A stretch of 64,000 nucleotides of DNA, taken from Oscillospiraceae bacterium (GTDB lineage: Bacteria > Bacillota > Clostridia > Oscillospirales > SIG627). The first letter of the stretch is position 1; every line of letters begins with the position of its first letter. A program made the position numbers and the translations under genes. The stretch spans positions 11,300 to 75,299 of the forward strand of contig SVTV01000010.1 of the NCBI GenBank assembly GCA_015063605.1, read 5' to 3'. Of this stretch, positions 12,405 through 30,615 are shown in pieces. Under the pieces are notes generated by a model. The model saw only the letters and a list, made by a program, of their open reading frames with translations. It did no database searches and was not told the DNA's origin.

Positions 12405-12944
12405 ATGAAAAATGAAGAGATTCCCTCCGTAATAAGAAAAAGGCCTCTGTTTATCATACTGCTGAGTTTACTTTTCTTTATCGGAATAGCCCTTGTATTC
12501 CTTTCCGATAAAGATCAAAGCTCATCACTTACCGATAACACCGCCGCCGCAAATGCGGTATTTACCGAAAACGAAAATGCTTTTTCGAATGAAGGATATG
12601 TAAGTTCTTTGGAAAAAAGATTAAAAGAAATGATAAGCTCCATTGACGGAGTAGAAAACGTCAAGGTCATGATAACCTTGAAAAACACCTCCGAAACGAT
12701 CTATGCAGAAAAAACAGAGGAAAGAGATCTGCCCTCGGGAAAGGAACGGTCTTCCTCGATAATATTGCGCAAAGCAAAAAACGGTGACGAAGTTCCTATC
12801 CCGGTTTCGGAAAAGCTCCCTGTCATAGGAGGTGCCGCAGTAACCTGCAGCGGCAATATAAACGGTACCTTGAAGGCGGAAATAATCTCACTTATATCAT
12901 GTGCTCTCGATCTTCCTACAAATAAAATATATGTAGGCGGCTAA
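12405..12944 (+). CDS. spoIIIAG: Stage III sporulation protein AG
   Basis: LEKRLKEMISSIDGVENVKVMITL; ALDLPTNKIYV. Confidence 0.9.
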   Translation: MKNEEIPSVIRKRPLFIILLSLLFFIGIALVFLSDKDQSSSLTDNTAAANAVFTENENAFSNEGYVSSLEKRLKEMISSIDGVENVKVMITLKNTSETIYAEKTEERDLPSGKERSSSIILRKAKNGDEVPIPVSEKLPVIGGAAVTCSGNINGTLKAEIISLISCALDLPTNKIYVGG

Positions 12945-29464: not shown

Positions 29465-29636
29465 ATATACCTCCATGTACCGCCGATAGTTTAGCATCCT
29501 TTTTTCGATACTTATAAACGGTACAGATTTTTCACTTACGGAATCGATTTTAAGAATCAAATCCTTATGCACTCTATAGTTTACTACACTATAAAAAAAA
29601 TTACAAGTGTTTTTTTGAAATTTTTTCAAAAAAGTC

Positions 29637-29665
29637 TTGACAAAATTGCTTTGTTGTGTTATCAT
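29637..29665 (+). promoter_or_regulatory. Sigma-A promoter of tRNA-Lys
   Basis: TTGACA-17-TATCAT with an A/T-rich upstream tract. Confidence 0.75.
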
Positions 29666-29739
29666 ATACGGGCGCCGATAAAAGGGCGCCTTTCAATCGT
29701 TCTTTTCAGATCGTTGGAAGCATATGCGCATATGCGTAA

Positions 29740-29815
29740 GACTCATTAGCTCAGTAGGTAGAGCACATGACTTTTAATCATGGTGTCCGGAGTTCGACTC
29801 TCCGATGAGTCACCA
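29740..29815 (+). tRNA. tRNA-Lys (anticodon TTT)
   Basis: 76 nt GACTCAT...ATGAGTC-A-CCA; D arm GCTC/GAGC; anticodon arm CATGA-CTTTTAA-TCATG; T loop TTCGACT. Confidence 0.98.
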
Positions 29816-29858
29816 AAAAAGATAACATCCGAGCTGAAAGTTCGGATGTTATCTTTTT
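29816..29858 (+). terminator. Intrinsic terminator after tRNA-Lys
   Basis: AAAAAGATAACATCCGA...TCGGATGTTATCTTTTT. Confidence 0.8.
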
Positions 29859-30035
29859 ATCCAAGCCGCAGGCTTGGCATGGAATCAATGCGCTTGCGCA
29901 TTGTATGGAATCGCCAAAGGCGTATGGCATCACCGAAGGTGCATTTTCTGCGGCTTGATTACATACGCGGCTGCGCCGCAATTCCATACCGCAACAAGTT
30001 GCGGATCTCATACACGCCTACGGCGTGATTTGGAT
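29859..30035. repeat. Symmetric multi-hairpin ladder element (structured ssDNA or RNA, unassigned)
   Basis: Seven mini-hairpins separated by three GTATGGAATC-like linkers and then three reverse-complement GATTCCATAC-like linkers; ATCCAA/TTGGAT ends. Confidence 0.8.
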
Positions 30036-30051
30036 GCGAAAGGAGAATGAT

Positions 30052-30405
30052 ATGGCAAAGAATTTATTGCTTGAATATTCCGAAAAATTGGCTTGCGAAA
30101 TTGCAGCGCTTTGCAACGAGCACAAAATAGACTCCAATACCGTATATCAAATCAAAAAATCATCATCAAGTGTTTTCGCCAACATTTCCGAAGCGCAATA
30201 TCCGCAAAGTCTTGCCGATATGCTTTCAAAGTTTGAAATTGCACGAAAAGAGTGTATGGAAACAGAGAGTTGGCTAAAGTTGATATTTTCATCCGGATGT
30301 ATTGACGAGAGGACATTTAAGAAACATCGAAATCTCTGCGGCAGAATACGCAGAATGTTAACATCTTCTTGTATTACAATTGAAAACAAAATTAAGCAAG
30401 GTTGA
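30052..30405 (+). CDS. Four-helix-bundle protein (23S rRNA IVP / Avd-like fold family)
   Basis: QIKKSSSSVFANISEAQYPQSLADMLSKFEIARKECMETESWLKL; RBS AAGGAG. Confidence 0.9.
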   Translation: MAKNLLLEYSEKLACEIAALCNEHKIDSNTVYQIKKSSSSVFANISEAQYPQSLADMLSKFEIARKECMETESWLKLIFSSGCIDERTFKKHRNLCGRIRRMLTSSCITIENKIKQG

Positions 30406-30421
30406 AAAGCCTTGCTTTTTT
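30394..30421 (+). terminator. Terminator of the four-helix-bundle gene
   Basis: AAGCAAGG...CCTTGCTT followed by a T-tract. Confidence 0.65.
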
Positions 30422-30615
30422 AGTGGATTCGGGCTCCTGCCCGATTTCGTCGGCTGACGTCCACGCGCTATGCTTGCCCCAGACGCAAGCGTCGAGGAAA
30501 CACAAAAAAACAAGCGATACTTGATTGCCAAACAATAAATTGATAATTGACCGTTTCCACCTTAATATGATATAATGTGATCACACCGGTGATATCAATA
30601 TCTGGAGGTCAGAGC

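Follow-up and report, generated by a model that had tools for sequence, protein, structure and literature searches.

What is a ladder of small hairpins doing between a tRNA gene and a gene for a small helical protein? The question was raised by a 64,000-nucleotide (nt) stretch of DNA from an Oscillospiraceae bacterium (assembly GCA_015063605.1, contig SVTV01000010.1, positions 11,300 to 75,299 of the forward strand), which we refer to as the window. At window positions 29859 to 30035, between a tRNA-Lys gene and a four-helix-bundle gene, short repeated words alternate with GC-rich hairpins, and the words of the right arm are inverted relative to those of the left arm. An earlier, sequence-only reading had taken this ladder to be a DNA-level recognition or recombination site, possibly part of a cassette-capture or mobility system in which a trans-acting enzyme had brought in the downstream cargo. 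The analysis presented here indicated that the ladder is a real, ordered DNA repeat family of gut Clostridia, so far undescribed as a family. We tentatively read it as a cis element, probably a binding array, of a module that is built around PF05635 genes and resembles the intervening sequences (IVSs) of rRNA genes. The binding is predicted, and we hold the reading as a whole at somewhat less than even confidence. A recombination site for cassette capture is possible but unlikely; what is chiefly new is that the ladder is linked to PF05635 and hence to rRNA intervening sequences.

In the window, the hairpins, linkers, centre, and ends listed in the earlier reading were all found in place; the parts of the module, from tRNA-Lys to the terminator-like hairpin behind the PF05635 gene, lie on the plus strand. 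The element opens with ATC and hairpin A (CCAAGCC-GCA-GGCTTGG; 29859 to 29877, the hairpin itself at 29861 to 29877), which is the most conserved part of the family. The left arm (29877 to 29940) consists of three units, each a 10-nt word followed by a GC-rich hairpin. The words, as read from the sequence, are GCATGGAATC, GTATGGAATC, and GTATGGCATC (29877 to 29886, 29903 to 29912, and 29922 to 29931), and the hairpins (29887 to 29902, 29913 to 29921, and 29932 to 29940) have TT, AAA, and GAA loops. A half-word (GCAT), a T-rich spacer, and the centre, CTGCGGCTTG, occupy 29941 to 29957, with the centre itself at 29948 to 29957. The right arm (29957 to 30026) holds the inverted words GATTACATAC, AATTCCATAC, and GATCTCATAC (29957 to 29966, 29980 to 29989, and 30004 to 30013), each followed by a hairpin (29967 to 29979, 29990 to 30003, and 30014 to 30026) with a TGC, AA, or TAC loop, respectively. 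A 25-nt tail at 30027 to 30051 holds GATTTGGATGCGA and the Shine-Dalgarno sequence AAGGAG (30040 to 30045), and this tail recurs in other PF05635-linked copies. The closing of TTGGAT (30030 to 30035) against the opening ATCCAA (29859 to 29864) is present in the window, but in the family it is limited to the subset of copies that run straight into a PF05635 gene.

The element folded far better as a single strand than its shuffled versions did. The z scores were −3.2 (plus strand) and −4.5 (minus strand) with RNA parameters and −4.7 (plus strand) and −3.9 (minus strand) with DNA parameters, and none of 200 shuffles was as good in any of the four cases. An alternative fold had also been proposed, and it held up. 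Specifically, the centre is the exact reverse complement of 29862 to 29871 (pair I8, 10 of 10 positions), which is the 5' half and loop of hairpin A, and hairpin A is thus able to pair alternatively with the centre. Across the family, the hairpin A loop and the centre co-varied over at least seven loop types (GCA, GAA, GACA, GACGAAGGA, GATA, GAAA, and GATTTT). A G/T stem variant of hairpin A was likewise mirrored by the centre, and the agreement extended past the 9-nt anchor. The element could not be assigned to a named family, as had been noted: no family in Rfam 15 matched it, and the whole window gave tRNA only at the gathering threshold. When the E value was relaxed to 10 (29500 to 30500), the sole touch was a spurious STnc240 match over the terminator (26.5 bits versus a gathering score of 55).

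The search for homologues returned many. The genome that carries the window (2.67 Mb in 61 contigs) held no further copy of this ladder, which is single-copy there, and the 40 relatives searched gave many partial and full matches, frequently close to contig ends. Among the 401 genomes sampled from the order, Oscillospirales, 67 carried the hairpin-A pattern, with 1 to 17 copies each, and a reversed control pattern had no matches. The distribution among families was patchy (for example, 17 of 26, 14 of 26, and 10 of 26 genomes, with zero in many families). A scan of one genome per species gave at least 120 loci, with titles that were mostly Acutalibacteraceae, Oscillospiraceae, and unclassified Clostridia/Eubacteriales metagenome-assembled genomes from ruminant and other guts. 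A parser reduced 205 hairpin-A sites to 101 well-formed copies, defined by a centre, at least two left words, and at least two right words; the rejected sites lacked a centre (81, many of them chance matches on viral or unrelated contigs), ran off a contig end (12), or had too few words (11). Three left units were present in 81 of the 101 copies, and the right arm had three units in 51 copies and four in 25. The number of units spanned 2 to 5, modules were mixed, and truncated copies existed.

A multicopy, patchy, modular record of this sort is what would be expected of a selfish, mosaic repeat of intergenic regions comparable to REP/BIME, BOX, or Correia elements, spread by gene conversion or an unspecified mechanism and kept for its terminator and promoter without a dedicated protein; PF05635 genes would merely land nearby. 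Near-identical copies, terminator hairpin included, also followed various tRNAs, both in single genomes and in separate genera, which is why we count that hairpin as part of the repeat. REP, BIME, and REPIN elements of Proteobacteria, which are mobilized by Y1-type RAYT proteins, are likewise extragenic, multicopy, and hairpin-forming, lie at the 3' ends of transcription units, and are mosaics of hairpins and short linker motifs with polar units in inverted groups. BOX elements of Streptococcus pneumoniae and Correia elements of Neisseria are modular, have variable internal units and stable predicted folds, and can supply terminators or promoters, as the ladder can. We nevertheless regard a repeat of this kind as an unlikely explanation. 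The ladder keeps its linker word while its palindromes vary, which is the reverse of REPs, and it has no GTAG-type head or conserved 5' tetranucleotide palindrome unit. It has no sequence relation to BOX or Correia elements, sits at the ends of stable-RNA genes, and has no definable terminal inverted repeat with target duplication. Its orientation is strictly fixed, and it is tied to a specific partner gene family.

The variation among copies indicated which parts of the ladder are kept. Hairpin segments were taken between words on both sides and, being bounded in this way, are unbiased for pairing. The 117 distinct left and 103 distinct right segments (220 in total) had stems that were about 95% Watson-Crick, with 580 Watson-Crick pairs and 29 others in left stems and 491 and 26, respectively, in right stems. 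The four outermost pairs were Watson-Crick in 89% (left) and 93% (right) of cases versus 29% in shuffles. Thus, the hairpins differ in sequence yet keep their pairing through compensatory changes, as the window copy had suggested, and the words are better conserved than the hairpins. The word consensus was GTATnnnATC in the left arm and its reverse complement in the right arm, with three main types that have ATC, GTA, or GGA as the middle triplet. The two arms of a copy agreed in word type: the middle triplet was the same in 74 of 101 copies, and 97 of 101 had at most one difference.

The strand-switching loops seen in the window also held family-wide. Left loops were GAA, GTA, GCA, or GNNA, and right loops were TTC, TGC, TAC, TTGC, or TTAC. 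Among top-strand mismatches, left stems had 15 G.T and 4 A.C and right stems had 2 G.T and 8 A.C (Fisher P = 0.0045), so the check for a strand-specific wobble bias came out strand-switched between the arms. Because both the loops and the mismatch bias switch strand, one strand of each unit is its sense strand, and the units of the right arm are inverted. Of the 4-nt loops, about half were GNYA, which suits the sheared G.A loops of DNA better than the GNRA loops of RNA, and the loop types as a whole fit DNA-type c-GNA-g mini-hairpins better than RNA tetraloops. Such loops, with G.T tolerance on one strand per arm, also favor a capture site that works as folded single-stranded DNA, like an attC site or a HUH/Y1 target, at which an enzyme acting in trans would insert or exchange the downstream gene at tRNA 3' ends. 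We return to this explanation below.

The gene downstream of the ladder pointed to a partner. In the window, the three inverted words of the right arm stop 25 nt before the start codon of a 117-amino-acid, S23p/Avd-like four-helix-bundle protein gene (30052 to 30405). The protein matched Pfam PF05635 (E = 9.3e-19; 68.1 bits versus a cut-off of 33.8) and TIGR02436 (E = 3.8e-20; 72.1 bits versus a cut-off of 24). Its closest solved relative was PDB 2rld_A (E = 4.7e-11), and the 2RLD entry has five chains. Across the ladder family, the next open reading frame (ORF) was PF05635-like in 21 of 101 copies, as judged by a motif search on ORFs that was profile-confirmed for the window only. The PF05635/TIGR02436 family was present in 191 of the 401 genomes of the order, often in multiple copies. 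It was found in 63 of the 67 ladder-bearing genomes versus 128 of the 334 genomes without a ladder, a cross-tabulation made by hand over related genomes rather than a formal test. The downstream gene is thus not the arbitrary cargo that had been supposed; PF05635 is a specific partner, and the ladder therefore points to an IVS/S23p-type module rather than to an integron-like cassette system. The very strong downstream enrichment of one gene family also argues against a mosaic repeat without a partner. An R-x4-H stretch in the window protein was considered as a HEPN-type RNase motif and was rejected, as it is not kept in close relatives.

A second PF05635 gene in the same genome (G000:C27:19764-20045, minus strand, within locus L029, G000:C27:18264-21545) was preceded by a second ladder subtype. 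Its word, TCGATATG, occurred three times in direct and three to four times in inverse orientation, with small hairpins and a GAA-looped first hairpin. This gene was flanked by direct repeats of 129 to 146 nt that were 99% identical; the repeats correspond to the left part of its ladder and are the only such copies in the genome.

Word arrays were also found upstream of PF05635 genes that have no ladder of the ATCCAAKCC type. We read 20 upstream regions from genomes without this ladder. Seven of them contained two-armed ladders on other words (AGTGATGTT, TAATGAAG, GTGATGC in two cases, ATGAAG, and AGTnnTATT in two cases); most of these followed a tRNA and a terminator, and their centre was again complementary to the first hairpin. 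One region (L232) had four direct units inside a 5' untranslated region (UTR). The remaining 12 had short tandem words of 7 to 14 nt, mostly 7-mers, just before the start codon. Most of 22 further PF05635 genes from across the phylum were arranged likewise, and in this set three ORFs lay within 23S rRNA genes, where they had TTAGATG-type 7-mers, and one lay within an RNase P RNA gene. The same architecture thus recurs with at least six other words, always before PF05635 genes, a recurrence that speaks against a mosaic repeat without a partner. A word-count measure (7-mers, one mismatch, both strands) failed to separate PF05635 upstream regions from controls, and we used TRF instead. TRF, which overlooks most hairpin-spaced arrays, found a tandem repeat within 220 nt upstream of 30 of 41 PF05635 genes versus 19 of 164 control windows from the same loci. 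The 24 arrays with a period of 7 had a median of 4.5 copies, and 17 of them had between 3.5 and 6.

Several of these loci are worth describing individually. In genome G424, two tandem modules had words in direct orientation before the ORF and inverted after it, which is the layout of an intervening sequence. Both modules (L254 and L258; G424:C72:38507-42419) begin with the same 25-nt tRNA 3' fragment, each has a private 7-mer, and ARAGORN found no full tRNA there. At L245 (G458:C1, about 403.5 to 404.4 kb), a PF05635 ORF and TTGGAAG-type 7-mers lie inside an RNase P RNA gene, such that positions 1 to 367 of the class A model stretch across 775 nt. Here the intervening sequence interrupts RNase P RNA and not 23S rRNA. 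At L228, L229, and L217, several PF05635 genes with tandem heptamers directly follow the 3' ends of large genes, with no visible promoter; those 3' ends resemble DNA methyltransferase or restriction-modification genes. The PF05635 family may often ride inside operons.

Because the ladder is a hairpin-spaced, two-armed version of the word arrays that precede PF05635 genes, we read it as the cis part of an IVS-like module. The element, 177 bp long in the window, is modular: a terminator-like hairpin is followed by hairpin A, three units of a 10-nt word and a GC hairpin, the centre, and three or four inverted units. About 40% of the copies add a σ70-type promoter and a ribosome-binding site. The element is placed directly behind a tRNA or transfer-messenger RNA (tmRNA) gene and before another gene, preferentially one of PF05635/TIGR02436. 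Hairpins separate the words here and the words of relatives are unspaced; since a folded hairpin joins its flanks, we suggest that the words act in single strand. Folding of the spacers would align the words into a nearly contiguous series, like the unspaced 7-mer arrays, and this series would be a candidate binding array for an oligomeric, mildly basic PF05635 protein. The PF05635 protein is the best candidate reader of the words because the arrays peak at four to five words, 2RLD has five chains, and the proteins are mildly basic (median isoelectric point of 8.8 and net charge of +4). The complementary arms may also zip into an interrupted stem like that of an IVS, and array binding and arm zipping together would control processing or expression of the downstream gene beside a strongly transcribed stable-RNA gene. 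Ladder copies without a PF05635 gene would then be terminator-spacer-promoter modules that have spread or been exapted.

The 23S rRNA IVSs of Leptospira and Coxiella that carry an S23p ORF are the closest known system. They too place a protein of this family beside a structured element at a stable-RNA gene, with complementary arms that are able to form a long stem. According to PMC4990558, the start codon of S23p in the Coxiella IVS is preceded by three to four copies of the heptamer GACAGAT, a short repeated word directly upstream of the ORF like that of the ladder, and the IVS has a 28-bp terminal stem that is cut by RNase III; the same paper calls it unclear where IVS elements come from and what they do. 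The accessible text of PMC10053308 describes PF05635/TIGR02436 proteins as relatives of Avd, the accessory protein of diversity-generating retroelements, and in what was available of PMC10910872, the 23S rRNA IVP is named in a figure legend only. Apart from the Coxiella heptamers, the literature searched held no description of an association between word arrays and PF05635. Unlike these IVSs, the ladder lies behind tRNA-Lys rather than in a 23S rRNA helix, and its arms, which are complementary at the word level, both precede the ORF instead of enclosing it. Its words are 10 nt long and parted by covarying GC hairpins, most of its copies have no ORF, and many have a terminator and a promoter.

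A number of observations weigh against an IVS-like cis element, in whole or in part. The binding of words by a PF05635 protein is a prediction, and the co-variation of words and proteins could be explained as linkage by descent. About 80% of the ladders have no adjacent PF05635 gene, and four of the 67 ladder-bearing genomes (G369, G273, G352, and G406; completeness of 85 to 97%) showed no member of the family. The earlier claim that linkers face complementary linkers stood insofar as the same word is inverted in both arms, but it failed at the level of register: among 40 distinct copies with 3 + 3 units, the nested rung register (left word i with right word 4 − i) had 129 mismatches versus 127 to 136 in five other registers. 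Since there is no register-specific covariation, we do not claim the ladder fold as drawn, which folding programs predict and which is possible; we claim only the presence of the same word, in opposite orientation, in both arms. Polarity also varies among subtypes, as GNA-type loops read inward here and outward in subtypes such as L224 and L223/L227 (judged by eye). A terminator-like hairpin stands before the ladder and, in about 40% of copies, a promoter stands after it; many copies may therefore be little transcribed, which would fit a purely RNA-level role poorly. Short contigs from RNA libraries did hold ladder-like pieces (three metatranscriptome contig sets and one DNA set), for which DNA carry-over is possible, the strand is not given, and other family members are not separable. 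DNA is favored by the types of loop, by their switch of strand, and by the terminator ahead of the ladder and the promoter behind it, and RNA is favored by the copies that run straight into the ORF, by the array in a 5' UTR, and by the arrays in rRNA and RNase P RNA.

Avd is a pentamer. We also put forward, as doubtful, a broader proposal. Word arrays and PF05635 genes may be one widespread, unrecognized class of selfish modules in or behind 23S rRNA, RNase P RNA, tRNA, and tmRNA genes, with the ladder as the most elaborate of their cis sites. It would be a single-stranded array with strand polarity, its hairpins aligning four to five words for a pentameric Avd-like protein. If true, this would explain the origin of rRNA intervening sequences and give TIGR02436 its first ligand. 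Apart from this proposal, PF05635 genes are regularly preceded by an array of a private short word, which one lineage has turned into a hairpin-spaced, two-armed, multicopy element behind tRNA genes, and the ladder may be the first clue to what a widespread PF05635 protein acts on. The association offers a concrete and inexpensive test, namely, whether a PF05635 protein binds the words and, if so, on which strand and in which nucleic acid. The repeat family also matters in its own right, since in gut Clostridia that are abundant and mostly uncultured it breaks up assemblies and brings terminators and promoters with it.

The upstream context of the ladder tied it to stable-RNA genes. A same-strand tRNA preceded 49 of the 94 copies with sufficient upstream sequence, with 26 anticodons represented, and an opposite-strand tRNA preceded none; the tRNA 3'-end position described for the window thus extends to much of the family. 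The tRNA 3' end lay 28 to 46 nt before ATCCAA, and only the terminator module intervened. A tmRNA preceded three of the copies without a tRNA. In the window, the stable-RNA gene is tRNA-Lys (anticodon ttt; 29740 to 29815), found by ARAGORN and matched by the Rfam tRNA model at 70.9 bits. It is followed at 29816 to 29858 by the terminator module, which opens with an A-tract and closes with T5; between them is a hairpin whose 20-nt arms are 95% complementary (inverted repeat I1, 3-nt loop). The module looks like a two-way intrinsic terminator; its hairpin was not listed by the consensus terminator scan.

Several copies without a tRNA directly before them were preceded by a directly repeated tRNA 3' end, since a further small element is inserted between the tRNA and the ladder. 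At L121, L183, L191, L181, L212, and L154, a full tRNA or tmRNA with its own terminator was followed by 70 to 400 nt, a direct repeat of the tRNA 3' end (17 to 60 nt), and the ladder, and the intervening piece often held an inverted stretch resembling a tRNA 3' half (GGAyTTGAACC). These loci suggest a different small element that inserts at the 3' ends of tRNAs, duplicating them. In addition, the 30 nt ahead of the terminator module contained one conserved stretch, gttctttttcggaca[ct]ga..gac, at L014, L041 (2237), L132, L148, and L151; this stretch is no tRNA and matched no Rfam family at the gathering score.

We now return to the folded single-stranded capture site introduced above. Several observations favor it: ladder-gene-ladder-gene arrays and tandem ladders occurred, and four or five copies were chimeric (L134, two in L190, and L214), with the left half of one subtype joined to the centre and right half of another at junctions that fell between the left arm and the centre. 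The second copy at L048 was cut off within the hairpin A loop, and the direct repeats around the second PF05635 gene, being a partial ladder, fit the same explanation. In several copies, a conserved promoter and a leader with a Shine-Dalgarno sequence reached exactly to the start codons of unrelated genes. The ladder also resembles integron attC sites: both are imperfect palindromes that lie between genes in arrays and would work in folded, single-stranded form, with a preference for one strand. However, the ladder does not have the R''/L''-L'/R' layout, it sits 5' of genes and brings a promoter, and the attC core motif, GTTRRRY, was not seen at its ends by reading.

What the capture explanation lacks is a recombinase. 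An enzyme of the HUH/Y1 type was not a consistent companion of the ladder: Y1_Tnp (PF01797), the RAYT-type domain, had no match in G028 (11 ladders, 100% complete) and a marginal match of 20.5 bits in G004 (17 ladders). No integrase-like ORF lay near the window copy, and the integron integrase was not searched for in the genomes; an island at tRNA-Lys was considered and rejected, as the window showed neither a repeat of the tRNA 3' end nor an integrase-like ORF in the ORF map of its positions 15 to 50 kb, in which ORFs were listed and not all of them profiled. The orientation of the ladder was fixed relative to the flanking transcription units. No pair of empty and filled sites was found. A genome of the same genus (G001) had the tRNA with its own terminator and no ladder, and because its downstream genes differ, this locus is not a clean empty site. 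The plasmid and phage collections gave no match (blastn, distant mode), and only one of 46 pattern matches on IMG/VR viral contigs was a true ladder (L096), the others being chance matches. On its contig, the L096 ladder is found on the minus strand around position 12795; since the end of the contig is near, a prophage border or a host flank may be what it marks. On balance, we judge capture by a recombinase to be possible but unlikely. An inversion switch was considered separately because the left arm is bracketed by 12- to 13-nt inverted repeats, and it was rejected: the flipped state was found in none of the 401 genomes (the pattern covered GCA and GAA loops only) versus the normal state in 67.

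On its downstream side, the ladder often ended in a promoter. A strong σ70-like promoter lay within 70 nt of the last hairpin in 38 of 99 copies versus 5 of 99 shuffles, and in about 18 copies the end of the last hairpin formed the −35 box, TTGATT. The promoter scan found none between the ladder and the ORF in the window copy. Together with the constant position of the element between a terminator-like hairpin and a gene, the promoter raises the prospect of an array of operator words that is read in duplex DNA by a transcription factor or a roadblock protein, insulating the gene from tRNA or tmRNA read-through and regulating the right-end promoter. The use of one word motif in both orientations, with no register-specific pairing, fits such an array, and an HTH-XRE/TPR gene is the second gene downstream in the window and lies directly 3' of the ladder in L165. 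Even so, we consider a duplex operator quite improbable. The words are 8 to 26 bp apart across the family and are thus out of phase on the duplex, and the spacers are strongly selected as hairpins with a strand-specific loop and wobble bias that duplex recognition does not explain. The L232 array is part of a 5' UTR, and the word arrays that accompany PF05635 within rRNA and RNase P RNA cannot be promoter operators. The duplex operator array and the mosaic repeat without a partner each fit parts of the data less well than the IVS-like cis element does.

The remaining features of the window flank the module. The PF05635 gene is closed by a terminator-like hairpin at 30394 to 30417 (terminator scan). 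Upstream, GCATATGC occurs twice in tandem at 29720 to 29735, each copy being palindromic, between a promoter-like site at 29637 to 29665 and tRNA-Lys. A second small structured repeat lies at 30421 to 30493, just past the PF05635 terminator. It has three copies in the same genome with 83 to 85% identity, and its summed depth was high in gut metagenome and metatranscriptome contigs.

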